A stretch of 63,743 nucleotides of DNA, filler included, from Raillietiella orientalis (taxonomy: Eukaryota): NCBI GenBank assembly GCA_036172245.1. It is 3 parts of 3 records of this genome, joined end to end, with 100 filler letters (N's around TTAATTAATTAA, not from the genome) between each part and the next. Parts side by side here need not be neighbours in the genome. Positions count along the whole stretch, not along the records: positions 21,828 to 42,872 come from JAYWIR010000233.1; 2 more parts are not named here. One strand, given 5' to 3'. The translations under genes were made by a program, and so were the position numbers. The notes under the pieces were generated by a model. That model was not told where the DNA came from. It was given only the letters and a program-made list of their open reading frames with translations, and did not search any database. Shown piece by piece: positions 21,728-42,972 of this stretch; position 1 is the stretch's first letter; every line of letters begins with the position of its first letter.

Positions 21728-21827
21728 NNNNNNNNNNNNNNNNNNNNNNNNNNNNNNNNNNNNNNNNNNNNTTAATTAATTAANNNNNNNNNNNNNNNNN
21801 NNNNNNNNNNNNNNNNNNNNNNNNNNN
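21728..21827. other. Artificial contig-concatenation linker (44 N + TTAATTAATTAA + 44 N)
   Basis: Exactly 100 nt with a six-frame-stop core; identical to the linker at 42873-42972. Confidence 0.97.
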
Positions 21828-23164
21828 CGTCATCGATGGTGGTGTCGATGACGGTCGCCGCAGCCGGCTCGCTCTTCTTACTGTTGACAAAGTCAACAGA
21901 GGGGAGGTCGTAGGTAGCGGCGAGTTCTTTCTGGCAGCTTTCGGCAACATCGACAACGCGTTTGACGACGACGCTGCACTCTGTAATTATCGCGCTACCC
22001 TGCTTTTTCTTCTTCTGTTAGTAGGCGATTTTTTTTTCCATCCTCCACTCCTTCTTTGATTTTTTTGCCGTTGCCACTTGCCACTCAGTCTTCTGGTTGG
22101 CTCCCTCAACTTTTTCGGCGTTGGTCGCCGGGGTCTCGGGTTCGGCCTGGGTCTTAAGCGCGGGTGGCACAGCCTTCACGGCAGCTTTCGCCGCCATTCT
22201 TTTCTGCAGAAGCCGGGCGCGTTATTTAAGGCTTCTCTTGGAAACCACCCGCACTGCTGCTTTTTGGCACACCTCCCTCGTGTGCCCCATTGTGCCGCAT
22301 ACTTAGCACTGCACGTTGGGACACCTCTTCTTGAGGTGGCCCGATGTATTGGAGAAGCCACAGTTTTTCGGCTTCCCCACATTCCAGAGGTCGACGGTTC
22401 CGCCTTCGACCACCAGTTTGTAGGGAAGAGTGCAGCCCTTTCGAACGGTCACGCGCGCAGCCGTGAGGCCGTGTTGCAGCCTTGTGTAGTCCCCGAAAGT
22501 ACAATCTTTTGTCCACTGCGCGTGGACCGTTCCAAATTGTTCCAGCGCGGCACGAACCTGATCTTTGCGCATTCGCGCGGTTACACCTAACAGGTGGACC
22601 ACCATGCTGCGGTCCGCCGTAGTGGGGAGAAGCCTACGCGTCCCCATTTCAACATGGGTTTTAAGCAGTCGTTGGACCAGCTCTGCATGCTTGCAGATGA
22701 CCTCAACGTACTGACCCTTGCTGCGGATGATCATAGCGATGAGCTCCTCCTGTTTCACATCGAGAGCGCGCATGCCCTTCGTAAAGGCGCGCGCGCTCTC
22801 TAAAGAATATAGATTGCCTATCTTGTAGAACAATGAGTTGCTATACCCCTCCTCTACATAGACCGACAATTCCGCCGCGGCTGCAGGCGATGAAGCCGAC
22901 ACAACGACGGTCCACGCCCGCGCTGCAGCGGGGACCGATTCTGTGAAGGCGGATGCCCTAACCTCCATCGCCTCTGGGGGCGACGTTGCCGCCGCCCTCT
23001 GGCTCTCAATCGCCTCTGAGGACGGCGTTGCCGCTGCCTCCTGGCCATCCCTGGAGGTCGCGTCAGGCATCCCTGCCTGATCGACCACCGAACCACACGA
23101 CGCTTGCACTGGGGGAGACGTCCTGGCACAAGGAGCACCGAGAAAACACGTTGTGAACCGAAAC
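21828..23164 (-). mobile_element. LINE piece A: 5' region and decayed gag-like ORF1 of an L1/Tx1-like element, cut by the contig edge
   Basis: ORF 22303-23109 (EGYSNSLFYKIGNL...RSMVVHLLGVTARM...AARVTV) is homologous to the ORF1s at 34795 and 40487. It has zinc knuckles CGFSNTSGHLKKRC and C*VCGTMGHTREVC with an in-frame stop, then a Lys-rich tail with ECSVVVKR and ELAAT motifs. Confidence 0.88.
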
Positions 23165-25895: not shown

Positions 25896-26708
25896 CAGCG
25901 ACGGCGCGCGTCACCACGAACGACCGAAAGCTTATGCCTTCGCAGATACTCCTCAGTAACGTCGTCGTTTATCTGCGGTTTTCCGGGCAAACCCCAGCTT
26001 GCGGCAACCGCGGGAAGGAGAACCACCGTCCGCGGAAGTGCCCAACACGCAGTTGCCGATACTGTAAGCTGCCCGGCCACTCGATTAACGAGTGCGCCGA
26101 GCTATAACGTAAGAGAAGTGCGAGAAACCTCCACGCACCATCGCCGTCCGCGCCGACGCCATCCGTTTCGTCGTCGGGGAAGAAATCCAGCGCGAACGAG
26201 GATTCGCAGCGGAGAAGTAAAGAGTCCGCTTGCGCGGTCGATTCTCGGAGCTATGCTCCGCAAAAACCCGCGAGAAAGAACAAGAAGCTTCTCCAGGGTG
26301 CTTCAGTAAGGCTCCGAGCAACCCAGTGCGCTGATAACATCGGCCAGGCTGCAAAACCACAGCCGCTTCCGTCCGCTATCGCTCCGGAGAGAAATAACAG
26401 TGGCATGCTCGGAAAGTCCACCGGAGCTACGAAAAAGTAATCGCGCGCTTCTTTGCCCGAGACAGGCAAGCCGGCCACGGCTGGCCGAACGCCAGCAAAG
26501 GTTGAAAAGCCTCGCGCGACCCTCGAGAATCCCGCCACTCTGCCCGCACCTTTCGGTAAGAAGGTGCAGAAGGCAGACAAGGCGAAGGAGACACTGGTCT
26601 TTATCGCCGTGTCCGAGGCCTTGCGAAGGATGCGAAGGACCCTCTAAGCCCTCGCGCCCTGTTCCCGGATAGATTATAATAAACTCCTCGGCGCACCCGG
26701 TGAATAAA
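25896..26708 (+). mobile_element. Element C1: divergent ORF1 3' half followed directly by the LINE-type 3' end (candidate non-autonomous HAL1-like element)
   Basis: One frame from 25895 to 26647 (ATARV..MPSQILL..CGNRGKENHRPRKC, CRYCKLPGHSINEC..SEALRRMRRTL*) with two internal TAA. It is followed by 61 nt containing GTTCCCGGATAG..AATAAACTCCTCGGCGCACCCGGTGAATAAA, which matches B's end. No ORF2. Confidence 0.7.
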
Positions 26709-26985
26709 CAGCCGACCCCCTGCGATCTTCTTTATCTCCTGGACGTCTGCCGCGGTCATCACGTGGATCTCCTGCAGGAGTGCCAGGTCAATGTCACGCA
26801 GGGTGTCGGCCGTATCTCGTCTGTAGCTGTCCTCGCGCAGCCCGTAGACGTTCCAACTGGGCACGCGGATCCGACGGCGACAGGTGAGCCCAGGTGTTAT
26901 TCCTTGGAAATTGGCTCTGCGGCGTCCGCCACCTGTTGGGTCGGGACGCTAGGTGTAGGGAGAGGGTTAGTTGCTGAAGTCTGGA
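26709..26985 (-). mobile_element. LINE fragment I: ORF1 end and APE endonuclease start, same family as G
   Basis: QQVADAAEPISKE* followed by ..RRRIRVPSWNVYGLREDSYRRDTADTLRDIDLALLQEIHV..GGRL; nucleotide-similar to 42180-42420. Confidence 0.88.
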
Positions 26986-26989
26986 ATGG

Positions 26990-27463
26990 AACGGGCGACC
27001 AGCTCTGGAGCGAACTGGAACGCGTAGGGGTCCGAGAGGACGATCTCCTGGCACTGATGCCAGTTAGCGCGGTAGGCCATTGAAGGGTGCACAGCAAGGA
27101 TGCAGCCCTCGTCCAGCGCCTGCTGCGAACACCCCTTAAATTCGGGGGAAGGAGGTCGTCCCCTCGGCCCTCGATCAATCGTTGGTGGTCCAGCTCTCGG
27201 GCATTCCGACGAGAATCACGGACAACGATATCATTGTTGCACTCGAGGCGTTCGCCACAGTGCACGCGATGTGGAGGCGCGCGAAGCCGATCGATAAAGT
27301 CGCGCGCTTCTCTTGCGGAATCGCCACGGCGCGCGTCAATATGGACGACCGGAGGCTCATGCCTTCGCAGATCCTCCTCGGTGACGTCGTCGTCTATCTC
27401 CGGTTTGCCGGGCAAACCCCCGCTTGCGGCAACTGCGGGAAGGAGGGACACCGTCCACGGTGA
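26990..27463 (+). mobile_element. Element C2: second ORF1 fragment of the C family
   Basis: LWSELERVGVREDDLLAL..H*RVHSKDAALVQRLL (frameshift) VVQLSGIPTR..ATARVNMDDRRLMPSQILLGDVVVYLRFAGQTPACGNCGKEGHRPR; 27325-27460 is similar to 25896-26035. Confidence 0.82.
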
Positions 27464-27469
27464 CAGTCA

Positions 27470-28286
27470 TTCCCGCAGTTGGCGTGGGGTTGCCGACTTT
27501 CCCTATCCCTTTCTTCTCTCTTCTCTGCAGGTGCACCTATGTGCTTGCGAAGAAAAGGTTGGCATCCATACTTCGCCCGGGAACAGCATAAGTCTGCTCC
27601 GGGCTAATTACGAATTCTGCCACCTGCCCCAGACGCGAAGCCCATAGCCCTGCTATCAACTTGGCGTCCGTATTCATGATCGTGATCGGACGCCAGTTCT
27701 TTAAATCCCTGAGGTCTCATCCTTTCGGTAGGAGCCTCACTCTCGCTGACCGAAACGAGGCGGGAACTTCGCCTTCGTCTCGGATCAGCCTGATCAACTT
27801 AAGCAACAGGAGTGTCAGCACTTCCGCGAAGCTCTGAAAGAACTCCGAGGGCAAGCCGTCTTTCCCTGGAGCTTAACGCCTCTTGAGCCTTTTGATACCG
27901 GCGAGAATATCGCCGGTGGTAAAAGGCTCCTCGAGGCTTTCCATCTTCTCCTCCCCTATTGCCGGGAGCCCATCTGGAAACAAGCGCCGAGAGGCGTCTC
28001 AATCCGGAGGCTCCCTGGCGTAAAGGGAGGAATAAAAACTTCGCACGAGATGGCGTACCGACGCCGGGGACGAACATTCCCGGCCCTGGTCGTCCAGCAA
28101 GATGGCCGACCCGGATTGCCAGGCTTGGCGTTCGGCCCCGGCGCAGTACTCCTCCAGGCGACGGACATTAGGGGTTATCTCGTACCTACGGGCTTGTAAG
28201 TAGGCCCGATGGTTGCGAGCACCCTCGCCGAATCCGGAAGACAGGCGGTCCAGGGAGAACTGCTCGCAGAACTCCCGGACGGAGGC
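27470..28286 (-). mobile_element. LINE piece H (downstream part): APE-RT linker and RT N-terminus, family of F/G
   Basis: ASVREFCEQF..GFGEGARNHRAYLQAR..RQAWQSGS..APGKDGLPSEFF..NWRPITIMNTDAKLIAGLWASRLG..PEQTYAVPGRS; closely similar to 39560-40255; contains stops. Confidence 0.9.
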
Positions 28287-30045
28287 TGACTCTCGGCTCT
28301 GTCGCCGAGAGGGTATCCATCTTCGAGAGGTGCCCGTCATCGTTATCCTCGTCGCCCTTTGAGCGCCGAGACGACGCGTCCTCGCCCCCGCTCCTCGGTC
28401 CCGCGGCCGAACAGCACCAGCCGGAGGGTGCCGGCGGTGCGGTATGGAGGGCGAGCGACGCCGCCCGCGCCCATCACCACCAGGAAGAGCCACCACAGGA
28501 AGCAGCAGCAGCAGGTGCAGATCACGCTCATCCGCCTCCTGGCGCTGCCGTTCAGCCGACTCGTAACTCTGCAGCCGAAATTCCAAGATTCTACTTTCCG
28601 TTCGGCCGCCCACAAGCTGCCGACGCGGCGGTGCAGTCCAGGGTTGTCGACCTGTTCCGACAGTTTCCCGACTCCTGTTTGCCGCAGGACCACTGCGAGA
28701 GCTTAGCAAAGGCACGTGGGTTCCCCCTTTACTGGAAAAGACCGCTGTTCTTGGCAGCTCAAGAAGACCACCGTGAGGTTCTGGAATTGAATGCCTTCCG
28801 GGAGTTTTTGGAAAGAACTTCTAGGCTCTTATCCACCAACCACGACGCAGCGTCGCAGCTGGTTGCCATCCTGACGAAAGGGAGGAGAAACTACTTGATC
28901 CCAGAGGACTTTCACCCTCTTATCCAGGACGTCATCGACACCCACCCGGGGCTCATGTTCCTGAGGGAAGCCAGCGAGTTCCACTCCCGCTACATCCACA
29001 CAGTCACGGCCCGCATCTTCTACTGCGTGAACCGCTCGTGGTCCGGCATCGTGAGCCTGGCGGAGCTACGGCGCTCCGACCTGCTGGCCACGATCGAGCA
29101 GCTGGAGCAGGAAGAGGACATCAACCAGATCCACCGCTATTTCTCCTACGAGCATTTCTACGTCATCTACTGCAAGTTCTGGGAGCTGGACATGGACCAC
29201 GACATGTTCCTGGACAAAAACGACTTGGCCAGATACAACGATTTTGCGCTGTCGCAGAAGATCGTGGACTGAATCTTCTCCGGCGCGGTGATGCGCACCT
29301 CGAAGAACGGGCGGATGGCGTACGGCGACTTCATGTGGTTCCTGCTCTCCGCTGAGGACAAGCGCAACCCCACCGCCATCGAATACTGGTTCCGCTGCAT
29401 GGATCTGGACGGCGACGGCTTTCTGAGGCCCTTCAAGCTGCAGCACTTCTACGAGGAGCAGACGCAGCGCCTAGAAGCCATGGGTGTCGATGCCCTACCC
29501 ATCCCGGACTGTCTCCGCCAGATACTGGACATGGTAGCCCCTTCCCTGCCCGGCTGCATCTCCCTGCGAAACCTGAAGAGGTGCAAGATGGCGCCTGTGT
29601 TCTTCGACACCTTCCTGGACCTGGAAAAGTACCTGGAGAACGAGCAGCGCGACCCATTCGTCTCGCAGAGACCCCGACGCGGAAACGCCGGAGGTGTCCG
29701 ATTAGGACCGCTACGCGGCCAGCGAGTACGAGGCACTCGTGGCGGACGAGATCAGCGGCGAGCAGCAGAACCATTTCCTGTACGACGAAAACGAAGATCC
29801 GCTCGACAAAATTGGTGTTCTTGTCAAGTACCCGGAATTCGCGGATTCAGACGAGAGCTTCCGCGTCCCCGTGCTCCCTCGTGAAACCTCCGGCGGCGAG
29901 TTTCCAAATGCAGCCCCCGTTTTGCTGGGCCCATCCCTGAGAGCAGCAGCCATCTTTCCCCGCGGAGACGACGGAGACAGCACACCGCCCGCAGCCGCCG
30001 AACTCTCGGAGAACTCGTCACGTGGACTCGGACAAGACACCCGAT
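28287..30045 (+). pseudogene. PPP2R3: Intronless retrocopy of the protein phosphatase 2A regulatory subunit B'' (PR72/PR70, PPP2R3A/B-like, EF-hand)
   Basis: IPRFYFPFGRP, FPLYWKRPLF, LIQDVIDTHPGL.FL..A.EFHSRYI, FSYEHFYVIYCKFWELD.DHD, IEYWFRCMDLDGDG and FFDTF..LEKYL..EQRDPF are colinear with no introns. TGA at 29270-29272 replaces the Arg of D-R-IFSG; there is a frameshift near 29670 and a TAG at 29703. Both flanks are contiguous halves of LINE H. Confidence 0.93.
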
Positions 30046-30401
30046 TGCGCCCCCAATCCGAGAGACCCTGAAGCGCGACGCCTCTTAGGAATTCGCGAAG
30101 GTGTTCCTTCGCAACTGAGAGTCGCGTCCATTCCCCCGGCAGACGCGAATTCCTGAATGGCCGTCCCCTGTCGCGAGGTCGCATCTCGAAAATTAACCGG
30201 GAATGGTCCGACAGCGTGGAGGCAATCTTCCCCCGTTTGCCGACCCGTGAACACAGGTCAGCGTCGACGAAGACGTGGTCGATGCTGCGGACCATTCCGC
30301 TCTAACCAGCGAACAAGTTGAGCGCACGCATGGCGGCGCACCACTCGTTCATCGCGTTCTCTTGTGTTTCTGGCTCACCTGTTAGCAGACGGAGATTGAA
30401 A
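30046..30401 (-). mobile_element. LINE piece H (upstream part): C-terminal half of the APE endonuclease
   Basis: FNLRLLTGEPETQENAM..MVRSIDHVFVDADLC..STLSDHSRL..ALQGLSDWGR; matches the G APE at 42690-42872 and resumes at 28286 across the retrocopy. Confidence 0.9.
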
Positions 30402-30519
30402 TTTATCACCCGGTCACGCCGGGGCGTTTATTAATAATAATAAACTGGTCAGGGACAATGTGCCCAATTAACAGAACGACAGGGAACATAGAAAGATTAC
30501 CGGCACGCAGGCCTGGTAA
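30402..30519 (-). promoter_or_regulatory. Structured 3' terminus of LINE D
   Basis: On the minus strand: TTACC(A)GGC-CTGCGT-GCCGGTAA at 30519-30497; AATAAA at 30432-30427; then CCCGG-CGTGA-CCGGG-TGATAAA. Confidence 0.75.
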
Positions 30520-31702
30520 ACAAACCGATCGCAGCGTGGGAGGAATGATGGGAAACAAACAAAAATCAAAAACTGGAGGGAAGGGTAACAAGTATTTGGT
30601 TAAGCTCCGTACTCACGGGGATTTTAACAATGAGCACCTAAAATGTTCCGGAGCCTATGGAGACGCGAATGTGGGAAGAAAATACAAAATAAGTTTATGG
30701 AGGGTAGGGCAATGATCACCGGGTTGGCCGCTGCTGAGGGTGTGTAACCCGGCGGTGTATTGCGGCGAGATTCCTTTTTGTCTCCTCTGTCAAATGAGGC
30801 CATCTAGCGGATGCTCTTATCTTAAAGGATGCTATGCTGATTACCTCTTGGTGCTGTCCGTTGATTTCCAACGCCTGGCGGAAGGAAACTATCGCGCGTA
30901 TCAAACCGATGGTTGCAATCCTTGCGCTTCGGCACAGCCCGCTCGGCGTGAAGAATCGTCGCAGCAGGTCTCTTGCGCTGTCCACAAGATGCATTAGTGC
31001 TTTTGCCAGCCTACGCCACAGTCTTTGTAGGACACCGCAGTCCAGAAGTAGGTGCGGAATCGACTCCGTCGATCCGCACCGAACGCATTTCGCAGACCCA
31101 AGTCCCTCGGAGTCTGGATGCCAACGAACGTAGCACTGAAAACCCCAGTGAACGAAAAGCAGCACGGCTCGTTTCCAAGCAGGGGAGAGCAGCGAAGTGT
31201 CAATACACTATGGAGGGACTACAAGTTCTACGGGGGTGACAGCAAGTTCTTCTGCCCACCGGAGGAGTCCCTTTTCAGTAACACGAGGAGTGGCGGCGTC
31301 CGCCAACTCACCCCACTTCCAGGCGCCAAGGAGTTTCGATTTTCCCGCTATCGTGCAGAAAACCGCCCACCTCGCCGGTTGGCAACTGTCGTTTCTTGCC
31401 CTGAGGGCAGACAGCGCTGCGGCGAGAAGCCTGGCAGCCAGGGTAGAGAACTTCACCACGTCCTGCAGTACTTAATCCAAGAATCGTGGAAAAAATCAAC
31501 GCAGGGGGCAAAGATTTTCAGGGCGAATTCCTTGGAACCCCGCCAAGGATTCAACAGACTCCTGGCGCCAAGCTTCCAAGTTCATTGGGCGGCAGGAGAT
31601 CCACGAGTGAGCTTCCAGAAGTGCGGTCAACTGCCGCAATGGAAACCCGAAACCCCGCTTCCTGTATTGACTGCCCGGAAAAAGCGAGAGAAATCCTCCC
31701 CT

Positions 31703-33019
31703 TCACACGCATCTCAGCAGGAAAACGCGGGCTGGCACACACAGGGGGGATATCCATAGCTGGGCACACAGTGCCAGCAGTCGGAACTGCACCTGCAGTC
31801 CGATTCGTTCCATTGTCAGGATACCCAAACCAGCATCCCGACGCGGAGCTAACAAAACTTTAAGGCGGAACCTGGAACTCGCCGGACCCCAAACAGCGTT
31901 TCTGAGCAGGCGTTCATCCCGCTGTTTAACCGCATAGGGGGGGTCCAAAACAAAAAACAGGGGACGGAGGAGGGGGGCCACAAAGGTGTTCCAAATAGTC
32001 GCCCGTTCCTGCAAGGTAAAACTGCCGTTCAAGAACGGGCTGATGGCCAACTCTCCTTTCTGATGACAGTCCGCACACGCTTCGACTGCGCCGAAAGCGC
32101 CCAACGGAACGCCAAGGTACTTAAAGTACTCGCCCGTGAGGATCCATAGGCAAATCCAGTCGGACTGCCTCTCCCATGACGTACCCACAGGAAAGACTAC
32201 GCTCTTCTCTCTGTTCACGCTCACGCCCGCTCCCCGACGAATCAGGTCGAAGAAATCCTCGACACTAGACGCCGGGGTGGACATGGGGAGCAAAAGAAGC
32301 AGGTCATCAGCGTAGGCGGCCACGGCAGGCATTCCCGGGCAGGAGCTGAGCAAGTGAGACAGCGTCAGCCTGTATGCTCTAAGCACTAACTCAAAGAAGA
32401 TGCTGAACAGCAACTGCATTAAGCTGTCGCCCTGTCGGATGCCTCTACGCACGGAAATACCATACACGCCGCAGCCGCTAAAAGTGATGCAGGTTAGCGC
32501 GTGGCGCCAGCACGCGTTCAAACACACCAGGAGTTGCGCCGGGAACCCAAGGCGTTCCATAAGCTCCAAAAGCAGCTTCTGGTTTACGCAGTCAAACGCC
32601 TTGTGGAGATCGACCGAGACCGCCAAGGCACCTGGCGTTCCCTCCTGCCGTCGGCGCCTGTTCTTCTTGACTGCGGCAGTGACTTTCGCAGCAGCCTGGC
32701 TTTGCTGCGCCACAACCTTCTGCAGCTGCATCCATGTACGTGCGAAAAGGATGTTCGCATCCATGGATCGTCCAGGAACCGCGTAGGTTTGTTCCGGGCT
32801 TACCAGAGATGACGCGATAGTTCCTAACCGCGCGACCCACAGCTTAAAAAACAACTTGACGTCCCAGTTCACCAAGGTGATCGTACGCCAGTTGTTAAGT
32901 TGGCGCAAGTCTCCGCCTTTCGGCAGGAGACACACCTTTGCTGAGCGGAAGGAATCCAAGAGATTCCCGGATTCACTCATCAGCGTCGCGAGTCTTAGCA
33001 TCAAAGGAATGAGCTCCAC
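31703..33019 (-). pseudogene. Reverse transcriptase domain of LINE D (longest open segment, 438 aa)
   Basis: NWRTITLVNWDVK, VDLHKAFDCVNQ, RRGIRQGDSL, AVAAYADDLLL, FKYLGVP; frameshifts and stops on both sides. Confidence 0.93.
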
Positions 33020-34794
33020 TGCAAAGCACTGATAAAACTCTGCAGGGAGCCCATCCTCGCCTGGCGCCTTTCGTCTCTTCAGCCCAGCGATGGCGAACGG
33101 AATTTCATCCGCCGTGAAGCTTTCCTTGAGACGTTTGCGTTCCTCCTTGCCGATAACACGATCATCCTGCGACAGGAGTATCTAAGAGAGAATATCCACC
33201 GTCGGGGATTTCGTGTACAGCGAGGAGAAGTAGCGTCTCACAATGCGGCGTACTTCGGCTGGGGCCGAACATTCCTCGCCCTTGTCGTCCAACAGGCATG
33301 CTGCTCCGGTCTGCCAGACCTGGCGCTCGGCCCTCGCCTTGTACTCCGCGAGACTCCCGACATCCACGCGTCTCGAAAAAGTTCGGGCCTGCAGAAAGTC
33401 TCTACTTTTGGCCACGCCCTTTCCGAAACCGGTGGAAGATGGTGCAAAGGGAATTGGCAGCAGAACTCGCGTGCAGATCTTTTGAGATGGTTCCAGTCCG
33501 CAAGTTCTTGAATGGCAAAGCCTCGGAGGTGTCCACGTAGATGCTCCGCAGCCTCCGTTTGGCTAAGCCAATCGGCCATCATCCTCTAGTTTTGCAAAGG
33601 AGGTCCCCTGCCTGGCGGAAGGATCTCAAACTGCAACTTGTGGTGGTCAGAAAGCCTAGTCAACAATCATACTCTGCTACCCTGACGCGAATGCAGGTTT
33701 TCATCAAGGAAAAGGTGATCGAGCGATCTTTCCATTCCAGATTCGCTGAATATGAAGTTGGCGGCGTGCACGGACGCGCACATCTCGATGAACAGCGCGC
33801 GCTCCCTCGGGCGTCTCCAATTGTCAGAGAGCAGTCGGACGTTGAAGTCCCTAGCGACGAGGTGCGCCACATGGAATATGGAGTTGTTGAGCCAGTGGCC
33901 CTGCAACTCACCAAAGAAAGCTACTCTTTCTTTGAGGTAACGAGAGCCATTCGGCGCGTAGACGCTCGTAACGACGAGATCGAGGGACTCGGACCACTAG
34001 ATGACAAGCTGGCCTTTCCGTCCGTCGTCATCGAAACGAACACTACGCACCGCTTCCGCCATTTTTTGTTTTACGAGGAACGCGACGCCGCACGTGTGTG
34101 CGCGGCCGCACCGCCGATGTAGCGTTCCGTCTGCACGCTCCTCGATTTCGGCTGCCTGCTCGTCGGAGATTACGTGAATCTCCTGCAGAAGCGCGAGGTC
34201 GAAGGGGCGCAGGGCGTTGGCTACTAATCGCCTCTTCTCGTCGTTCTGTTGTCCGTTCACGTTCCAACACGCGACGGACAGACGACGAGAGCATGCGATT
34301 CCTTGCATTACTGCTGAGAAGGTGGCGGCTTTTTGCTCGCTTTATCCGGTTAGCAGACGGCGAGCAGCACGACTGGCTGGATGGGACAGTCGCCACCGTT
34401 CTCTGTCGTGCTGCATGCATGTAATGCCTCCACGCCAGGCTTAACCCCGTCGGGTTTCGTGGAGACTTCGCGTTGCTTCGCGGCGACCGTTGCCTGGCTG
34501 CCTACTTTTGATCGGCGCGCGCACGCTTTTGACTGAGTTGTCCTCGTCTCGGTGATCGGAACGGCATCTATTTCAGAGTCCGACCGGCGCATGTTCGATC
34601 GGGTTTCGGCCTTCCGCGAAGTAGTGACAGGTTCTGCTGGATTGACAGGTGTCCTGTTGTCGTTTTCCGACACCAGAGCATCGCTTAAATGCGGCAAACC
34701 CGCGCCGGTGCCGCACGCGTTTTTCTTCAGCTCCCGTGAGCGAATCCAAGCACGGTTGTCGGAAGTGTGAAAGTGCGGCCGTTGTGAGGCAGAA

Positions 34795-36429
34795 ATGCCT
34801 GAATACGCCGCAGTACCTGCGACGGGAGACGTGAGGCCCACGTCTCCCCAACCTATGCAGGTGGGGTCATGCCCCACCAGAAAATCAGCCCCCGCCACCC
34901 CGGCGAGGGCGTGGAACAAGGTGGCCGCGGCGGCTCCGCCGGACGTGGCCGCCAAAGTGCAGGCCTACATAAAGGAGGGCTACAACCCAGCCCTCCTTTA
35001 CAAGGTAGGAAATCTTGATTCATTGCTTACAACGCGGAAATTTGGAAACGCCATCCGTAGGATGGGAATATCTGACGAGGAGATTCTTTGCTTCTCGATT
35101 CGGAGCGGCGGGCAGTTCGCGGAGCTGATCTGCAAACATGGAGCGCTCACACACAAACTGCTCTGCATGCCCGTTCCGTTCGAAGGGTGGAATCTCCTCC
35201 CACACACGGTGGATCACTCTATGGTGATCCACCTCACGGGTACAACGGTGCGGATGACCAAGGAAGCCATCCGCACTGAAATCAACAAGTTCGCGGAGAT
35301 ATACGCGATGTGGTCGAAGCCCAACGCCTTTACTTACCGAGGCGCATTTAGTGGGCGAGTGGCCGCACGCGTAACTCTCTGCGAAAACAAAGAACTTTCC
35401 CACAAGCTTGAAGTCAACGACGAGCTCGCCGACCTCTGGTACCGATGGAAGGAAAAATACTGTGGGCTGTGCAACACATTCGGGCTTCTTAAAAAGAGAT
35501 GCCCGGATGCCAAATGCCCAACCTGCGGCGCGAAGGGCCACACTAGTGCTGTGTGCCCGAAAAACGCCGCGACAACGCCTTCAACCCCTTCGACAAATGA
35601 GGGAAAGAAGGCAGAAAACCAAAAAACGTGGGACCAACAGCCGACCTCAGAAGAAGTTGTGCACAAGGAGCAGGAGCCTCAAAAGGAGACTTCTGAGCCA
35701 ACTGCCGACGAGGAAAACTGGAAACTCGTGTCAAAAAAAAAAACAAAGGAAACACAAAAAAAAACCAAAGCTCCAAAAAAAAATAATAATAATACAAATC
35801 AGAACGCGAGCGTTTCCAAAAAACCCGCGGTCGGCAAACCAAAAATTTCGCCGCGCGAGTCGATGAAGGAATGCCGCGTTGCAATCGAGCGCGTTCCGTC
35901 GATCAAGCGTCGATCGGCGAACGCGACTCCCGCAACCGTCGCGAACGCCGCGGAACCGCCGCAGGAATCCTGCGACAAACACGCGAGCAGCAACGACGAG
36001 AAAAACTTCGCGAAGGCGGCGGAGGAACTCGCGGCCACCTTAATGCAGCCGCCTAAGGCTGCAAAGAAGGCCTTCGGACGTCCGGCGGAAGTTAGTGGCC
36101 CGGAAACTTCCGGGTCCGAGGCGGAAGCCGGCAACCCTACCACCGTCGCCCTCTGGAGGAGGAAGGCGGGCCAGAAGTCGGGCAACCTAATGCGCGTCGC
36201 TCCCCCTCAGGCTGAGGAGGAGGAGATGCGCTCGGATAGCGAGGAGGCGATGTCCGCGAGGTCAAGGGATCCCTCTATCGACAGCATCCGGTCGGTCGTT
36301 CCTATCGACCTCAGTCCGGCTGCAGACGTTCCGGTCGTTGCCGAAACGCCACCACCGCTGATGGACAACGACCAGCCGCCTCCCGAACAGGAGGCGGCAA
36401 TACACACGCCACCACCATCACTAGTATGA
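34795..36429 (+). CDS. LINE ORF1 gag-like nucleic-acid-binding protein, 544 aa, open reading frame
   Basis: RRM-like region (SMVIHLTGTTVRMTKEAIRTEINKFAEI), knuckles CGLCNTFGLLKKRC (His lost) and CPTCGAKGHTSAVC, and a long Lys/Pro/Glu-rich tail. The host element is broken, so it is probably not functional. Confidence 0.85.
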   Translation: MPEYAAVPATGDVRPTSPQPMQVGSCPTRKSAPATPARAWNKVAAAAPPDVAAKVQAYIKEGYNPALLYKVGNLDSLLTTRKFGNAIRRMGISDEEILCFSIRSGGQFAELICKHGALTHKLLCMPVPFEGWNLLPHTVDHSMVIHLTGTTVRMTKEAIRTEINKFAEIYAMWSKPNAFTYRGAFSGRVAARVTLCENKELSHKLEVNDELADLWYRWKEKYCGLCNTFGLLKKRCPDAKCPTCGAKGHTSAVCPKNAATTPSTPSTNEGKKAENQKTWDQQPTSEEVVHKEQEPQKETSEPTADEENWKLVSKKKTKETQKKTKAPKKNNNNTNQNASVSKKPAVGKPKISPRESMKECRVAIERVPSIKRRSANATPATVANAAEPPQESCDKHASSNDEKNFAKAAEELAATLMQPPKAAKKAFGRPAEVSGPETSGSEAEAGNPTTVALWRRKAGQKSGNLMRVAPPQAEEEEMRSDSEEAMSARSRDPSIDSIRSVVPIDLSPAADVPVVAETPPPLMDNDQPPPEQEAAIHTPPPSLV

Positions 36430-37313
36430 TGCGTGGAATCGCCTCTTGCAGGCAGCCGCATATAGCCTGTTGGAATGTCAGCGGGCTGCGTAGCGAAAGC
36501 AAGAGGCGTAGCGTGGCCGACACCCTGCGACCTTTCGACCTGGCACTTCTCCAAGAGGTGCATGCCCTCAGAGCAGAGGACGTCCAGGAAATCGAGAGGC
36601 TCACAGGGGGGAGGCTACTTTGGCGTGGTGGAGGAGACCACTCCCGCGGGGTGGCCTTCCTGCTAAAGACGGCCGTCGCCAATGCGGTGCGCAGTGCACA
36701 GTTCGACGAGGAAGGTCGAGTCGGACAACTTGTCCTTAAGTGGTCCGAATCGATCGACCTCGTAGTGACGAACCTGTACGCGACCTGCACCAGCCACAGG
36801 CGCGCAGAACGCACTGCGTTCTTCGAAGCCCTGCGGCAAGGCTGGCTGGACGAAGCAGGCGTGCGGCGGGCGCATCTGATAGCGGGAGACTTCAACGTCC
36901 GCCTGCTGTCGGAAGCGCATGACGTACGAGCACAATTGGTCAACGAGTTGTGTGCGGCTATGCACACACGCAACTTCTTGGCCGATGAAGCCAGGGCGAG
37001 AAGCATAATCGACCACGTGTTTCTCGATAATCACTTGTGTACGCGGGTGGGGACTCGAGGAGCAATTGCGTCGGAGCTGTCCGATCACCCTCGGCTAGTG
37101 ATTAACATTCATCCGCGCGACAGAGGTCCACCCTTCGAAGCGTGGCGCCTGCCGGGAGACTGGTTGCGACTCGCAGGAGCGCGCGAACATCTGCGCGCAT
37201 TCCTGCGTAGTTGCGAGTAGCAGACTCTCGCTGACTTGGATAAAATAAAACGCTCAGTCCGAGAGTTCTGTGACCAGTTTCCCTCCATCATCTTCCTCCA
37301 GGTTTCGGCGATG
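36426..37313 (+). pseudogene. LINE E ORF2 N-terminus: AP-like endonuclease (EEP fold)
   Basis: Catalytic motifs CWNVSG, LLQEVH, NLYA, AGDFNV, IDHVF and LSDH; stop at 37218-37220, then truncated. Confidence 0.93.
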
Positions 37314-37314
37314 C

Positions 37315-37437
37315 CACCCGGATACGCCGGGACGTTTATAAAAAACGTTTCAATTGTCAATACAGAACGTGGTACATGGCCCCACTGACGGTGACGCAAT
37401 ACCGGAACTGCCGGGACACCAAGACGCAGCTCAGTGT
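37315..37437 (-). promoter_or_regulatory. Structured 3' terminus of LINE F
   Basis: On the minus strand: ACACTGAG-CTGCGT-CTTGGTGT at 37437-37416 (two G-U pairs); TATAAA; CCCGG-CGTAT-CCGGG-TG. Confidence 0.72.
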
Positions 37438-40255
37438 GGCTCTCCTCAGCAGTAGAGGGGGATGGCGGAGAACACAAAAATAAAATAAAAGAGAAAAACA
37501 AACCACAAAAAAAAAAAGTTTGGAGGGCCGGGAAGGGATCACAGAGAACTGCTAGGAGGGCCGATCCTTTGCAGGATGCCTTCTAGTTCCTTTTTCATCC
37601 TTCCTAGATGGGTCCATCCGGTAGATCTCTGCAGGAAGCGAGAAGCATACTCGATAACATCCCTCACGATGCAGTCTTCATCTTCGGCATCACTCGAGGC
37701 CGCCACTATACCACGAATGCAGCAAAGTGCTGCCAGGGCTGCAGCTGGACTGAGGGCGTCCCGCACGAAGACAAGACCGAAGATACATTCACCATTGCCA
37801 CCATTCGGTATCCCAAGTGCCGTTTGAAGACGTTCCCAAAAAATCCGGACGGCAGGGCATTCAACTAAGAGGTGGGGGAGCGAATCCCGCTCCCCACACC
37901 TGGCACACGCAGGATTTACTCTTCCCCGCGTCCAGTGGAAGCGGCGCGCGTTGCAGGGTAGACCCCAATGCAGCCACAGAAGCGCCGATTCTTGCCACTT
38001 CAGGGGAAGAATCCTGTATTTAAGTAGAACCGGGGGCCACTCCAGGTCAGACAATCGAATGCCGAGCAGCTCGCCTTATCTTCTTAATCCACGCGGCTGG
38101 ATACTAGGGGTCGTTGCATCTCTCAACTCTCCCATGGCCCAGCCGCTCATCGTTTTTTCTCTGCCTGCGATACGGCAGCAGACTTGCCACCTTGGCTTCC
38201 GGCTTTCGTGAAGCGCCTTTTGGAGGAAGGGCATCGCTGTAACAAGGGGTGTGCCTTCCGCCCACGTGCAACTCGGTGCAAATTCAAGTATTTCACGTAG
38301 AGCTCGACGGGCGTAAAAGCCGATTCGCAGGCAGTTCATCTGGTCTTCGCACCTCTGGTTCAGCTTGGCCCAGGTGCCAGCAGTCTCTTCCAAGCAAGCG
38401 AAGAAGTTGGCAGGGCCACAAACCATCCAGTCGTTCTCCTTTGCCAGGGTTGCCATGCGGCCGAGCAGTAGACCGCATCTTCGAATCTTCCGGCCAGGGC
38501 ACAGAAGAAACGATGCGAGTCCTTCGCAGCGGGACACACGCCTGGCCAGGAGACGGGCCGGAATGTACCAAGCGGTGCTCCACATCTTCGCTGCGATGGC
38601 GAGGGTCCGCCATCGCAGCTGGATTTGCACGCGCTCCAGCGTCAGGATGCTGAGACCGCCGTCCCGACGCGGAGCGCACAATTCCTTCAAAGGGACTTCG
38701 GGTCTCCCCTTGCCCCAAAGAGCTATGCGGAGGAGGTCCTTCGTCCGCTTTTTCGATTCCACGGGGGCGGGGCAAACAAAAAGCAAGGGGAAGAGTATGG
38801 GGGCCGCGAAGGCGTTCCAAACCCCGGCTCGTTCTGGGAAGTGAAGCTTGCCTTCCAGGAACGGGCCAATCGCCGTCTCGACTTTTTGGAGACAGCTGGA
38901 CCGGCTTCCGCAGGGGAGAAGTCCCCCAACGGCACACCGAGGTACTTGATGCACCTCACCGTTGGGATCCCCAGACGGACCCAGTCCTGCTGCCCTGCCC
39001 ACGTCGCTCCAACTGGCAACACTGACGACTTCGCCGTGTTGACCTGTAATCCGGCCCCACGGCTAAGCCGGTCGAAGAAATCTCCGACCGCCTTCGCAGG
39101 GGTGGACATAGGTAAGAGGAGCAGAAGATCGTCGGCATACGCCGCTACGGCTGGCGTGCCGGGGCACGAGCTCGGCAAGGGAGCCAACGTCACCCTTTAC
39201 GATCTCAGCACCAACACAGCGTAGGTGCTAAAAAGCAGGGGGCTGAGGCTGTCGCCCTGCATTATGCCCCGCCGCACCGGCACGCCATACACCTTTTGTC
39301 CACTGAAAGTAATTGAGATTATCGCGTTCCGTTAGCAAGAGCGCAGGTAGGTAATCAAGAAGGGCTGGAAGCCCATGCGACCCAGGAGCTCCAAGAGGAG
39401 TTCCTGGTCAACACAGTCGAATGCCTTATGGAGGTCGACTGCGATCGCTAAGGCCCCTTTTCCCGCATTAGGGTTTCTACCCTGTTTCACTGACGACCTC
39501 AAAGTAGGGTTGCAAATATTCCCTTTCCCTTCTTTATTACTCCGCTGCGCGTGCATCCATGTGCTCGCGAAGAAGAGGTTGTCCTCTATACTTCGCCCGG
39601 GAACAGCGTATGTCTGCTCCGGGCTAATTATGAAATTAAACACCTGCCCCAATCGCGACGCCCACAGCCCGGCAATCAACTTGGCGTCCGTGTTCACAAT
39701 CGTGATCGGACGCCAGTTGCAAAGTTTCCAGAGGTCTCCTCCCTTCGGGAGGAGGCTCACCCTGGCTGACCGAAACGAGGCCAAAACATTGCCTTCGTCT
39801 CGGATTCGCCTTGTCAACTCGAGCACTAGGGGGGCCAGCTCTTCCGGGAAACTCTGAAAGAACTCCGCGGGCAAGCCGTCTTCCCCTGGCGCCTTACGCC
39901 TCTTGAACCTTTTGAGACCGGCGAGAATTTCACCGGTCGTGAAAGGCTCATCGAGGCTTTCTCTCTCCTCCTCCCCTATCGCCACGGAACCACTCATGAG
40001 CAATCGCCGCGAGCCGTCTTGTTTGGGTGGAGTTTTGGCGTAAAGGGAGGAATAAAAACATCGCACCAGATTCCGTACTGCAGACGGGGACGAACGTTCC
40101 CGGCCCAGGTCATCCAGCATGCTGGTTGACCCGGATTGCCAGGCTTGTCGCTCGGCTCCGGCGCGGTATTCGGCCAGGCGACGGACATTGGGGTTCCTCT
40201 CGTGACCACGCGCGTGCATATACGCGCGTTCGTTGCGAGCCTCTACGCCGAATCC
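37315..40255 (-). mobile_element. LINE piece F: ORF2 from the linker (GFGVEAR..) through RT and CCHC to the 3' end
   Basis: KAPGEDGLPAEFF, NWRPITIVNTDAK, VDLHKAFDCVDQ, RRGIMQGDSLSP, AVAAYADDLLL, KYLGVP, CARCGERDSLPHLLVEC; stop at 37539; ends TATAAACGTCCCGGCGTATCCGGGTG; contains stops and frameshifts. Confidence 0.94.
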
Positions 40256-40263
40256 CCGCTGTG

Positions 40264-40276
40264 GAGAGCGGACGTG
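40264..40276 (+). promoter_or_regulatory. Possible internal Pol II promoter element (DPE-like GGACGTG) near the 5' end of G
   Basis: GAGAGCGGACGTG lies about 15 nt inside the 5' boundary; RGWCGTG is the DPE of Drosophila LINE internal promoters. A has a similar ACGTGTTTT at 23151-23143. The motif is short and could be chance. Confidence 0.35.
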
Positions 40277-41572
40277 CTTTTCCTGCGCTCCGCCTGCGTG
40301 GCAAAGCGAGTGTTTTATCTTCTTGAGTGATTTGTGCGTGCACATCGTCGGTGTCCGATCGCAACGTTGCCAGAGGACACCGCGATGGAAGTAGGTGTGG
40401 AAGATGCTTGTTCGCCATTACAGCCTACTGGATCAGGGGCATCCGCCCCGGAATAGTTTCCGGCGACGCCGAGGTCATGGAGCGCCATGATGGCCGCGCC
40501 TAGCGTGGAAGCCATGGTCGAGATGGAAGGCTACAAGAAAGCGGGATATAAACCCTCGCTAGTCTACAAGGTAGGCAACCTTTTCGATGGGCGAACTGCA
40601 CGCGCCTTTACGAAGGCGCTGCAGAACGCCAATATTTTTGAAAAAGATCTCGACGGCCTCTGCGTTCTCAGCCGCGGGCAGCGGGTAAAGGTGGTATGCA
40701 AGGATATCACCTTGGCCCGACACCTGATCACCAACCCGCTGATCGTTGATGGTCGGAACATCTTGCCGATAACGATGGACCGCTGTGTGGTGGTCCATCT
40801 CACTGGGATCTCCAGTCGCATGACGAGGTCAGCGGTTCGAGAGCAGCTACAAAAGCACGGAGAAGTGCACGCGTTGTGGCCGCAGTCCACGATTTTCCAA
40901 GGCTACAATAGCCTTTTCGGAGGTCAAGCTGCTGCGCGTATCACGGTAAAAGAGGGTGGTGCGCTTCCCCATAAGCTGGAGGTCTGCCAAGAAGCGGTGG
41001 ACCTCTTGTACGTGGGAAAACGCCAATTTTGTGGTTACTGCAATGCAGTAGGGCATCTACGAAAAAGGTGCCCGAACATTTTGTGCCACCTATGCGGCGA
41101 AAAGGGTCACGTTCGGCGCGTGTGCCCCAAGCGCCCCACCTCGGTGCCCCCTGCCGCCAAAAAGGCGCAGGGAAAACGTGGAAAGCAGGTAGAAAGACCA
41201 GCTCGCGAAAATGGCCGTTCCCAACTGCCAGCCTCCCTTCCTCCCGTACAGACGTAGGAGGAAATAGCTCCCGTGGACGCGGGAATGGAGAAGGGTTGGC
41301 AGCTGGTTCAGGCCAGAAAAGAGAAAAAAAAGAAAGTGATGATAGAAGAAAATTCGGTAAAGAAAACTGCCGGCAACAAGAAAAAAGCCGCGCCGCTTTC
41401 AAAAAAAAAACTCCGCGAATGCTCGGTGGCACTGGAACGCTTATCCGTTCCTGCCGAGTCCGCCCGCGGCAATGTTCGCGGAACAGCTGATGCGGACGCG
41501 ATGAATACTCGCGTGGACGAGCCCAATCTACGTGTGGAGGGTGAGACGCGAGACTCGCGCGCCGACAGCCAG

Positions 41573-41734
41573 GACGCCGCGCTCGATAAAGTCGCGGAGG
41601 AGCCCGCGGCAACGTTGGCCGTCAACGATGACGCCGCACTCGATAAGGTCGCGGAGCAGCCCGCGGCAACGGTCGCCGCTGGCGAGGACGCGGCCTTAGA
41701 GAAAGCGGCGGAGGAGCTCGCAGCAACGCTCGCC
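41573..41734 (+). repeat. 57-bp in-frame tandem repeat, about 3 copies, within G ORF1
   Basis: Units start at 41573, 41630 and 41687: DAALDKVAEEPAATLAVND / DAALDKVAEQPAATVAAGE / DAALEKAAEELAATLA. Confidence 0.9.
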
Positions 41735-42872
41735 AAGCACGAAACCCCGTCGCGCAAGGGCGTACGCAGGTCGGCTCCGACGAAGAAGGCCCCCGCAGGT
41801 GAGTGCGACCTGGGGGCCGGAAGCGGATACTCCTCCTCGTAGGCACCCCCCAGGAAGTCGGGACGCAAGTCCCAGAAACCCAGGAGGCGCCTCTCCTCCA
41901 CCAGCGAGGAGTAGAAACCGGAAGGAAGCGGCAGCGTGGGAATCCCGGAGGGGGAATACCCACGTCCGGAAGCCGTCGAGTCGGCCACCTCCATGGAGGA
42001 GGAAGAGCAGGGGGGTGAAGTCCTCCCTGCAGTCGCGAAACCTGAGCAGCCCGAACCCATGGAGGGAGGCGAACAGGTAGGCGCGACTCCACGTTCGGGT
42101 GATCCGGCCGACGCGCCGGCACCGATGGAGGAGGAGGAAAAGGTGCCTTCAGTACCTGTCCTCCCTCCCCCTCCAACTAGCGTCCCGCCCCAGCAGTTGG
42201 CGGACGCCGCATCGCCGTTTTCCCTGGACTAACACCTGAGCTCGGCAGTCGCCGGCGGATTCGCGCGGCCTGTTGGAACGTCAACGGGCTGCGCGACGAC
42301 GGCAACAGGCGAGATACAGCCGACGCTCTGCGTGAGCACGACCTGGCGCTGCTGCAGGAGATCCACGTGATCACCGCGGCAGACGCCCAGGAAATCGAGA
42401 CGATCGCGGATGGTCGGCTGTATTGGCGATGCGGCCTCGGCAACACCTGCGGGGTCGCGTTCTTCGTGAAGCCGGCCATCGACGCTGCCGTAAAGGGCGT
42501 GCGGCTTGATGACGACGGTCGGATCGGTCAGCTGATTCTCAGCTGGTCCGACTCGATCGACCTAATCGTCACAAACGTGTATGGCCTCAGCGGCAAACAG
42601 GGTTACCGCGACCGCACCAGGCTGCTGGAATCCCTGAAGCGCGACTGGCTGGCGGATAACAATGTGCGAAAGCCTCACCTGATAGCGGGAGATTTCAATC
42701 TCCGCCTAATAACAGGTGAGCCGGAAACACAAGTGAACGCGATGAAAGACTTGTGCGCCGCTATGCTTGCGCGCAACTTGTTCGCGGGTGAGAAAGGAAT
42801 GGTCCGCAGCATCGACCACGTCTTCCTAGACGCTGTCCTGTGTTCAGGAGTCGGCAAACGGGAAAGGGTTGT

Positions 42873-42972
42873 NNNNNNNNNNNNNNNNNNNNNNNNNNNN
42901 NNNNNNNNNNNNNNNNTTAATTAATTAANNNNNNNNNNNNNNNNNNNNNNNNNNNNNNNNNNNNNNNNNNNN
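42873..42972. other. Artificial contig-concatenation linker (44 N + TTAATTAATTAA + 44 N)
   Basis: Same 100-nt spacer as 21728-21827. Confidence 0.97.

Follow-up and report, generated by a model that had tools for sequence, protein, structure and literature searches.

The 21-kb contig at positions 21828-42872 of the window (the whole 63,743-nucleotide stretch of Raillietiella orientalis DNA analysed here) is a pile of decayed, mutually inserted non-LTR retrotransposons (LINEs), and two of these elements share a breakpoint. Element F lies antisense in element E directly behind a G-F-G-D motif, and F itself breaks off at the orthologous G-F-G-V codons, where it abuts element G. The most likely reading, to which we assign a probability of roughly 0.45 from comparison of the copies, is that these elements would have accumulated through serial nested antisense insertions, with the breakpoint shared by chance or through a weak target preference. 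On balance, we regard the locus as an ordinary nested LINE stack with one striking, explainable coincidence.

Composition of the LINE contig

All of the LINE copies lie in this contig. Its GC content is 0.55-0.61, compared with approximately 0.43 in the flanks, which are contigs of 278-bp and 180-bp satellites joined to it artificially through N runs (21728-21771, 21784-21827, 42873-42916 and 42929-42972) and a TTAATTAATTAA linker. The elements have the make-up of APE-type LINEs: C has both Exo_endo_phos and RVT_1, E and G have Exo_endo_phos, F has RVT_1, and the ORF1 of G has zf-CCHC. As in L1/Tx1-like LINEs, ORF1 carries CCHC knuckles, and ORF2 an AP-like endonuclease, an RT and a C-terminal Cys-rich motif; this likeness is one of domain architecture, the zf-RVT matches being under the Pfam cut-off.

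Element H, the sister copy that defines the boundary of F, is in two parts on the minus strand. The RT-side part (27484-28300) comprises the linker, intact from REFCEQF to GFG, and the N-terminus of the RT, and it is colinear with the C-terminal part of the endonuclease (30045-30402) across a 1.75-kb fragment of a PP2A-B'' gene. There are 4 in-frame stops in the 251 codons of the RT-side part and 5 stops in 924 nt of H overall. The 3' end of element C breaks the 5' side of the endonuclease part of H. C (30405-34640, minus strand; 5' limit approximate) represents a third family and comprises a spacer, an endonuclease (Exo_endo_phos, E 7e-07), an RT (RVT_1, E 8.1e-17) and a 3' tail. Head-to-head with it lies E (34650-37313, plus strand; 5' end approximate), with a 5' leader, an ORF1 that is open over 34771-36429, an endonuclease (Exo_endo_phos, E 2.4e-13, within 36240-37220) and a linker. 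The APE of E is 47-48% identical to those of C and G, and its ORF1 is 39% identical to that of G. Because C and E each have an endonuclease, and their proteins are only 47% identical, they are not halves of one RNA, and this head-to-head pair cannot be the product of single-RNA twin priming. Antisense nested entry of 5'-complete copies is seen at the same pair.

Element F (37314-40255, minus strand), a member of the H-like family, comprises the linker from the GFG codons, an RT (RVT_1, E 5.4e-07, 30.0 bits against a cut-off of 29.6), a C-terminal Cys motif (zf-RVT, 18.5 bits, under its cut-off), a 3' UTR and a 3' tail. Its protein is 71.7% identical to that of H and 50-53% identical to those of C and A, and it has decayed by three in-frame stops and one frameshift in 2.7 kb. 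Element G (40256-42872, plus strand) begins with a putative 5' leader (40256-40486), followed by an ORF1 frame (40487-42232) with a CCHC zinc knuckle (zf-CCHC, E 1.3e-05) and three in-frame TAG codons, and by an endonuclease (42233-42872; Exo_endo_phos, E 1.5e-12); there are 3 stops in 2.4 kb. The end of the contig at 42872 cuts G approximately 240 nt ahead of its own GFG codons. Comparison of the G, E and Z leaders by blastn revealed no convincing common block (best E-values 0.03-0.33), so the 5' termini are not definable by comparison. H is the nearest copy present to both F and G, and with H set aside, F and G are most closely related to each other. G is 88.3% identical in nucleotides to the APE of H and 82.6% identical to K; G and H lie 12 kb apart in inverted orientation. 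The levels of decay (three stops and one frameshift in F, three stops in G and five in the older, outer H) are compatible with nesting, and CpG decay was uninformative as a clock, with observed/expected ratios of approximately 0.9-1.3 in all copies. Reassignment of TAG as a sense codon was rejected, since read-through of TAG, TAA or TGA lengthens frames alike on both strands in this GC-rich DNA.

A conserved 3' tail, AAACGTCCCGGCG..CCGGGTG, was found at 37315-37337 (minus, in F), 25868-25890 (plus) and 30407-30429 (minus), with 3 matches in the contig and 0 in 100 shuffles. The stem-loop-like tail of F (CCCGGCG..CCGGG) matches those of A and C and is 5 nt shorter than in A, B and C; B carries a fourth, more diverged tail. 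The copies therefore began their insertion at a common conserved 3' terminus, as is expected of LINEs. At three of the four 3' junctions (A, B and F) the primer strands end in ..G-N-T-G, with TCG(G)C a few bases upstream, while the fourth (C) is ambiguous, and F's own motif TTCGGCGTAG is similar to TTCGGCGATG of E. A nick-site preference of the form ..TCG(G)C..TG| is thus a possible lead that rests on four sites and is not significant. Site-specific targeting of the GFG codons was dropped, as there are just four 3' junctions in the window.

Database searches brought up distant relatives. The RT of F had 8 matches among longer proteins, the best with 62% identity (P0001, JGI contig) and the others with 26-32%, and no near-identical protein was found in that search. 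For the endonuclease of G, none of the 2072 candidates of near length had E<=1e-8. A scan of metagenomes with a 3-row RT alignment revealed 302 relatives, but the best 80 of these 302 all showed 22-36% identity, which is too distant for use as family copies.

The breakpoint shared by E and F

A sequence-only reading of this DNA had placed F antisense in E immediately after GGTTTCGGCGATG (37301-37313, plus strand), the G-F-G-D codons of E, and this placement held: the conserved family 3' tail of F directly abuts this coding sequence, which forms the final bases of E. E aligns with H and C as far as 37313, and the break falls after the GFG codons. The junction is good only to approximately 1 nt, because F lacks the terminal ATAAA that is present in A, B and C. 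The sense 3' segment of F ends in the true family 3' terminus at the target junction, as in a twin-primed insertion. This tail shows that F entered E antisense at a true target-primed 3' junction, and E's GGTTTCGGCGATG was presumably the primer 3' end for the reverse transcription of F.

The 5' limit of F had been put at GGATTCGGCGTAG (40243-40255, minus strand; G-F-G-V), orthologous to 37301-37313, and two comparisons confirmed it. First, the blastn alignment of F with H (79.7% over 753 nt, 39504-40255 vs 27484-28235) ends exactly at 40255. Second, when E, F, H and C are aligned together, one column block holds GGTTTCGGCGATG of E, GGATTCGGCGTAG of F, GGATTCGGCGAGG of H and GGTTTCGGAAAGG of C; the REFCxQF block upstream is common to E, H and C, and F does not align there. 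That 10 of the 13 nt are identical between the motifs of E and F was counted correctly, but the match has no weight of its own, because the families are approximately 58% identical and, by our own binomial arithmetic, at least 10 of 13 matches at orthologous codons have a chance of approximately 0.13.

The breakpoints are offset by 13 nt in an element of approximately 5.6 kb. According to our arithmetic, the chance of such a coincidence is 0.5% (~27/5600) for one pre-specified pair, approximately 2% over the three to four pairs in the contig formed by the 5' boundary and the target site of one element, and approximately 27% for any pair among roughly 12 internal breakpoints. The coincidence is not extreme, yet pure chance is uncomfortable, given that the breakpoints agree within the length of one plausible target-site duplication (13 nt), that the orientation is the very one that would let homology act, and that F and G are so closely related.

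Divergence of F and G from H

On the other side of the breakpoint, the head-to-head arrangement of F with the 5' leader, ORF1 and APE of G was found as had been described: G starts at 40256 on the plus strand, beside the limit of F at 40255 on the minus strand, with ORF1 and APE in G and the RT in F. This is a matter of geometry only. If F and G came from a single RNA, they should be equally diverged from other copies, as the sequence-only reading had assumed, and here the data lean against it. The identity of G to H is 151/171 nt (88.3%), compared with 596/752 (79.3%) for F and H (Fisher p=0.0068), a test for which just 171 nt of G were usable owing to the contig end, and which takes the two parts of H as one element and gene conversion between G and H as absent. 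None of the 582 F-H windows of 171 nt exceeded 84.8%. In addition, dS was 0.21 for G-H vs 0.47 for F-H, and dN was 0.10 vs 0.18, although both of the compared regions are equally conserved between families (55-61% vs 58%). A single-RNA origin is disfavoured because G is far closer to H than F is at equal regional conservation, which suggests that F and G did not derive from the same RNA. From these divergences we infer that G is probably a separate, later copy belonging to another, closely related subfamily, and a homology-guided inversion accounts for the data no better than two separate insertions do.

Under serial nested insertion, H would contain C, C would contain E, E would contain F, and F would contain G. 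The antisense entry of F into E was ordinary target-primed reverse transcription, for which the sense strand of E, nicked after ..GGCGATG, served as primer. G, 5'-complete, would then have entered F antisense, so the missing 5' half of F should lie beyond G, off the contig. The common GFG breakpoint would reflect chance among a dozen or so breakpoints, or a weak nick preference (..TCGGC..TG|) met in both E and F.

Alternative explanations

The 5' inversion of L1 copies has reportedly been attributed to twin priming, by Ostertag and Kazazian in 2001. The sequence-only reading had proposed a homology-guided form of this process, in which one RNA of the F/G family was inserted antisense into E. 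A 13-nt overhang of antisense E would pair with the orthologous GGAUUCGGCGUAG of the RNA and prime a second cDNA to the RNA 5' end, giving G, while the first cDNA would halt at the orthologous point, giving F. On the right-hand side, the 5' half of the G family would end up colinear with the RT half of the E family, as a chimera. We consider this explanation unlikely, though worth weighing. The geometry and strand polarity of the proposal are correct, as a stagger of approximately 13 nt gives an antisense-E GFG overhang that is complementary to sense F/G RNA, and, as judged from the map, the first cDNA would be unable to pair with this overhang. The tail junction of F in E is real, the limit of F does fall at the orthologous codons, and H is the nearest copy to each of F and G, which are similarly decayed. 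The 13-nt offset is compatible with a target-site duplication, which Kojima (2010, PMC2912911) puts at ~14-16 bp for L1; according to the same paper, microhomology is needed at this step in 5'-inverted L1, with only 28 of 605 copies without it. However, the distance from G to H is about half that from F to H (p about 0.007), which is not expected for one RNA. Guidance by the overhang would also be weak, because the 13-mer matches 10/13 at five equally good sites in the 5.5 kb of F and G, and the third base from the 3' end of the primer is mismatched. Moreover, the C/E pair shows the same geometry without single-RNA twin priming.

An unguided event, whether twin priming at a chance inversion point, the joining of two RNAs (F and G) or a breakage hot spot in the linker, appears improbable. 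Twin priming that involves another RNA has been put forward for L1 chimeras whose partners are antisense (PMC13174262) and would fit the different subfamilies of F and G, but two RNAs do not explain why F ends at the GFG codons. As for a hot spot, four breakpoints cluster around the GFG codons within approximately 200 nt: relative to these codons, F breaks at 0 and E at +12, the 5' limit of A lies at about +100 to +135, and H carries its PP2A insert at about -60. This cluster is not significant after correction for the post-hoc window (approximately 0.2 by our arithmetic). Likewise, no conserved stable RNA fold starts at these codons, the z-scores being -1.27, -0.65 and -2.26 and the three structures differing. 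A fold of the alignment that suggested structure from the GFG motif was rejected, since the single-sequence z-scores and folds disagree with it.

A chimeric assembly join between E and F or F and G is very improbable: the contig is short, repeat-dense and set amid artificially linked contigs, but the E/F join falls at the exact family 3' terminus, as biology rather than an assembler would predict, the copies differ by 12-40% and so offer no long identical repeat to collapse on, and the F/G join unites unrelated sequences. Finally, in-place DNA inversion between the 13-nt motifs was rejected because it presupposes that F and G are a single element, which is disfavoured, and that E and F belong to one family, which they do not; recombination between inverted RT halves was rejected because it likewise presupposes a single F/G element, against the divergence test.

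Comparison with known systems

The locus resembles L1 twin priming in its layout: the 3' segment is in sense orientation and keeps its 3' end, and it meets an inverted 5' part of that family head-to-head. The twin-priming model, as described by Kojima (2010, PMC2912911), makes internal priming dependent on pairing of the target overhang with complementary RNA. Unlike in L1, the target here would be a homologous antisense LINE, the match would be long and position-specific instead of a chance microhomology of 2-5 nt, the inverted segment (G) reaches a putative 5' leader, and the divergence comparison speaks rather against a single RNA. Chimeric L1s have also been ascribed to pairing of nascent cDNA with nearby homologous genomic DNA in an SDSA-like manner, in earlier work cited by a preprint (bioRxiv 10.1101/2024.08.27.596794). 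Homology between the inserting element and the resident DNA would similarly steer resolution here and can make chimeric elements, but the pairing would be between target overhang and RNA rather than cDNA and DNA, antisense, and accompanied by inversion. Among the papers listed for twin priming with homology or chimeras, none was found to describe a target overhang that pairs with the RNA at the orthologous position when a LINE enters another in antisense.

The Zepp clusters of Chlorella are nested LINE-in-LINE stacks in repeat-rich chromatin. As in those clusters, later copies entered earlier ones, and each junction enters the younger element. Unlike in Zepp, the elements here end in a specific stem-loop-like tail, ..CCGGGTGATAAA, with no poly(A), and four junctions are too few to fix a preference for self-targeting.

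This locus is chiefly of value because it invites a genome-wide survey; it is not evidence for the mechanism. The general idea, tentative and unlikely, is that an element landing antisense in a homologous LINE would meet an overhang that necessarily complements the orthologous part of its RNA, could be primed there, and would resolve as an inversion, on the far side of which the 5' half of the incoming family would join the RT half of the resident family in a seamless, colinear chimera. If this is true, LINE families would have a built-in route for swapping modules, of which F/G in E would be the first example caught, and the mosaic, module-swapped LINE lineages of many genomes would have a mechanism that does without DNA recombination.

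Sequence context and organisation of the LINE copies

The window consists of three contigs that are artificially linked by runs of N (21728-21827 and 42873-42972), each surrounding the letters TTAATTAATTAA. The flanking contigs are pure satellite at about 43% GC, with a 278 bp unit at 3-21717 (contig 1-21727; matches 93-95%) and a 180 bp unit at 42973-63743 (matches 90%), and are tied to the LINE contig solely via these linkers. All of the coding-like sequence lies in the middle contig (21828-42872; GC 55-61%). Because the joins are artificial, the sequence after 42872 in the window differs from that in the genome, and the decisive sequence begins about 240 nt past the contig end.

The order of the decayed LINE copies was established from translated and nucleotide self-comparisons, and their domains from Pfam scans. 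Copy Z (22231 to about 23080, minus strand) carries ORF1, and the C-like copy A (about 23100-25897, plus) runs from the reverse transcriptase (RT) to the 3' tail. They are followed by an unnamed plus-strand copy (from 25898; ORF1 C-terminus and spacer) with the short tail B ending at 26712, by K (26708-27083, minus; spacer end and N-terminus of the AP-like endonuclease, APE; 82.6% nucleotide identity to G) and by a further unnamed ORF1 fragment (27084-27460, plus). Copy H (minus) comprises an RT side (27484-28300; linker and RT N-terminus; 79.7% to F) and an APE side (30045-30402; APE C-terminus; 88.3% to G). Beyond it lie C (30405 to about 34640, minus; spacer, APE, RT and 3' tail), E (about 34650-37313, plus; 5' leader, ORF1, APE and linker), F (37314-40255, minus; linker from the GFG codons, RT and 3' tail) and G (40256-42872, plus; 5' leader, ORF1 and APE). 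Exo_endo_phos was detected in E (36240-37220, E 2.4e-13), G (42181-42870, E 1.5e-12) and C, and RVT_1 in C (E 8.1e-17) and, barely past the cut-off, in F (E 5.4e-07); a CCHC knuckle lies within ORF1 of G, and the zf-RVT matches at the C-termini of F and C were weak and under the cut-off. At least three families are present, with about 45-55% protein and 55-61% nucleotide identity between them. The elements add new members to a known type, the APE-type LINEs, and their 3' tail is a specific one other than poly(A); the nearest protein found in a protein search showed 62% identity.

Several other features were observed among these copies. The unit at 25898-26712 follows A's tail in the same orientation and contains an ORF1 C-terminus (..AARVT..), a Lys/Ser-rich spacer and a 56-nt LINE tail (25844-25899 and 26657-26712 are 84% alike); it may be an ORF2-less derivative element. 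Its segment 25898-26035 is repeated at 27323-27460 (85.5%), and a 58-nt imperfect palindrome (27427-27484, 79%), exactly at the end of H's RT similarity and of the plus-strand ORF1 fragment, is suggestive of a joint formed by fold-back or rearrangement. Part of a gene for PP2A regulatory subunit B'', 1.75 kb long and free of introns (about 28300-30045, plus; EF-hand_13 E 7.2e-33, P2R3B_EF-hand E 1.2e-08) lies antisense within H's linker, between ..GLSDW and SVREFCEQF. It has one in-frame TGA (29270-29272; Arg in relatives) and a 3' end with neither poly(A) nor LINE tail, and may be a captured cDNA or template-switch product. The ORF1 frame of G (40457-42232, plus) spans 1.77 kb and is interrupted only by three in-frame stops, each of them TAG, as is the single stop in the endonuclease-linker frame of E (37218-37220). 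Tests of read-through offered no support for an altered genetic code, and these stops may reflect mutational bias, e.g., CAG to TAG.

Breakpoints at the GFG codons

The sequence-only reading had placed F antisense in E immediately after E's GFG codons (37301-37313, plus), a conserved G-F-G motif in the endonuclease-RT linker, and this was borne out. The 3' terminus AAACGTCCCGGCG..CCGGGTG is common to A, C and F (3 matches versus 0 in 100 shuffles), while B has a more diverged form; ATAAA follows in A, B and C, and F lacks these five bases. F's conserved tail directly abuts the reverse complement of E's GGTTTCGGCGATG, and E/F is accordingly a true 3' junction of target-primed reverse transcription, for which the sense strand of E served as primer. 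The 5' limit of F likewise lies at the orthologous codons (40243-40255, minus), as had been proposed: F-H similarity stops precisely at 40255/28235, the four GG(T/A)TTCGG.. motifs of E, F, H and C align in one block, and upstream of it E, H and C have REFCxQF in common, F showing no similarity there. The reported 10/13 identity between the E and F codons was correct as a count, but carries no independent weight, being expected of homologous codons at such divergence.

The real signal is the positional coincidence of the two breakpoints. We calculate that it would arise by chance with a probability of about 0.5% in a single pair, about 2% in the 3-4 element-and-target pairs of the contig, and about 27% in any two of the dozen or so breakpoints.

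The spacing from REFCxQF to GFG is 38 nt in both E (37240-37313) and C (33380-33460, minus), which belong to different families, and 39 nt in H; this places endonuclease and linker in one frame and GFG and RT in the -1 frame, with the change exactly at the breakpoints studied. A C CCT TTG heptamer is present at this point in C but absent from E. The spacing could represent a native frameshift, a two-ORF arrangement or a shared defect.

Divergence of F and G from H

H is the sole copy containing both regions compared, on the assumption that its two parts, which are colinear and follow directly on each other in element coordinates on either side of the PP2A insert, belong to one element. In the endonuclease C-terminus, G and H were identical at 151/171 positions (88.3%), an overlap of 171 nt only in which G/H gene conversion is possible, versus 596/752 (79.3%) for F and H in the linker and RT N-terminus (Fisher p=0.0068). 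None of 582 F-H windows of 171 nt exceeded 84.8%, and between-family identity is alike in the two regions (55-61% vs 58%). Both dS (0.21 for G-H, 0.47 for F-H) and dN (0.10, 0.18) were about two-fold apart. With 5 in-frame stops in 924 nt of H, decay of H itself can explain most of the distance between G and H, in which case G would derive from nearly the subfamily of H and F from a more distant one. The equal divergence of F and G expected of a single RNA was thus not found, and the result leans against one RNA.

Origin of the F/G/E arrangement

The reading we favour, with a probability of about 0.45, is serial nested antisense insertion. It has the higher prior because every junction over 12 kb of the contig enters a further element. 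Head-to-head geometry also arises otherwise, as in C and E: both bear an endonuclease and they are 47% identical, which leaves two origins for E, either entry into C in antisense as a separate copy with a complete 5' end or a two-RNA event. A third head-to-head pair, which may be twin-primed or nested, is Z/A, near 23080-23130, where Z extends off the contig start; the ORF1 start of Z (minus) lies about 15-45 nt from A's 5' limit (plus), itself about 100-135 nt downstream of where the GFG codons of A would be expected. The primer strands end in ..GCTG| (A), ..GCTG| (B) and ..GATG| (F), with TCG(G)C just upstream in all three (junctions at 25890-25905, 26705-26720, 30395-30410 and 37305-37320; C's is ambiguous through A/T overlap), which may indicate a weak nick-site preference, a lead only from four sites. 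Given the likeness of F's own motif, TTCGGCGTAG, to the TTCGGCGATG of E, such a preference could place two independent antisense insertions at the same codons. At the junction of B there is TATT/AATA microhomology to the terminal AUAAA of the RNA.

Homology-guided twin priming of one F/G RNA, as first proposed, appears doubtful. The first cDNA would be primed on E's sense strand nicked after ..GATG, and a second nick about 13 nt leftward would leave a 3' overhang antisense to E's GFG codons, which would prime on the RNA at the orthologous site and copy to its 5' end, yielding a colinear G-5'/E-3' chimera on the right. The polarity holds, the antisense-E overhang being complementary to the sense F/G RNA, and twin priming is the sole homology-based route because the first cDNA, also antisense, could not pair with the overhang. 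The left side is as predicted, with G's 5' end against F's GFG, and the positional coincidence favours this mechanism perhaps 10-100 fold. According to Kojima 2010 (PMC2912911), L1 twin priming relies on overhang-RNA microhomology (2-5 bp in about 70% of 5'-inverted L1; 28/605 without), and duplications peak at 14-16 bp. However, guidance would be modest: E's 13-mer slid along the 5.5 kb F+G sense sequence gave five 10/13 sites, the orthologous one included, and in the orthologous duplex the third base from the primer end is mismatched, although later mutation blurs this test. The divergence test disfavours twin priming perhaps 10-30 fold. As an interpretation, homology-guided twin priming is a coherent hypothesis, one that the only internal test available counts against.

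Other complex or two-RNA events, or a breakpoint hot spot, seem improbable. No more than about 200 nt from the GFG codons there are four breakpoints (those of the PP2A insert in H, of F, of E and at the 5' limit of A), but this cluster is non-significant once the post-hoc choice of interval is allowed for, and fold analysis found no conserved stable RNA fold starting at these codons. An assembly artefact is very improbable.

Twin priming and its microhomology dependence (Kojima 2010, PMC2912911), chimeric L1s formed by cDNA pairing with homologous DNA (bioRxiv 10.1101/2024.08.27.596794) and twin priming with a second RNA (a proposal; PMC13174262) are already described; none of the papers listed by full-text searches was found to report a target overhang pairing with the RNA at the orthologous position of a LINE entered in antisense. 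The homology-guided idea would be a new variation on a known mechanism; this locus has moderate-to-low value as evidence for it, and somewhat higher value as a hypothesis for a genome-wide survey.
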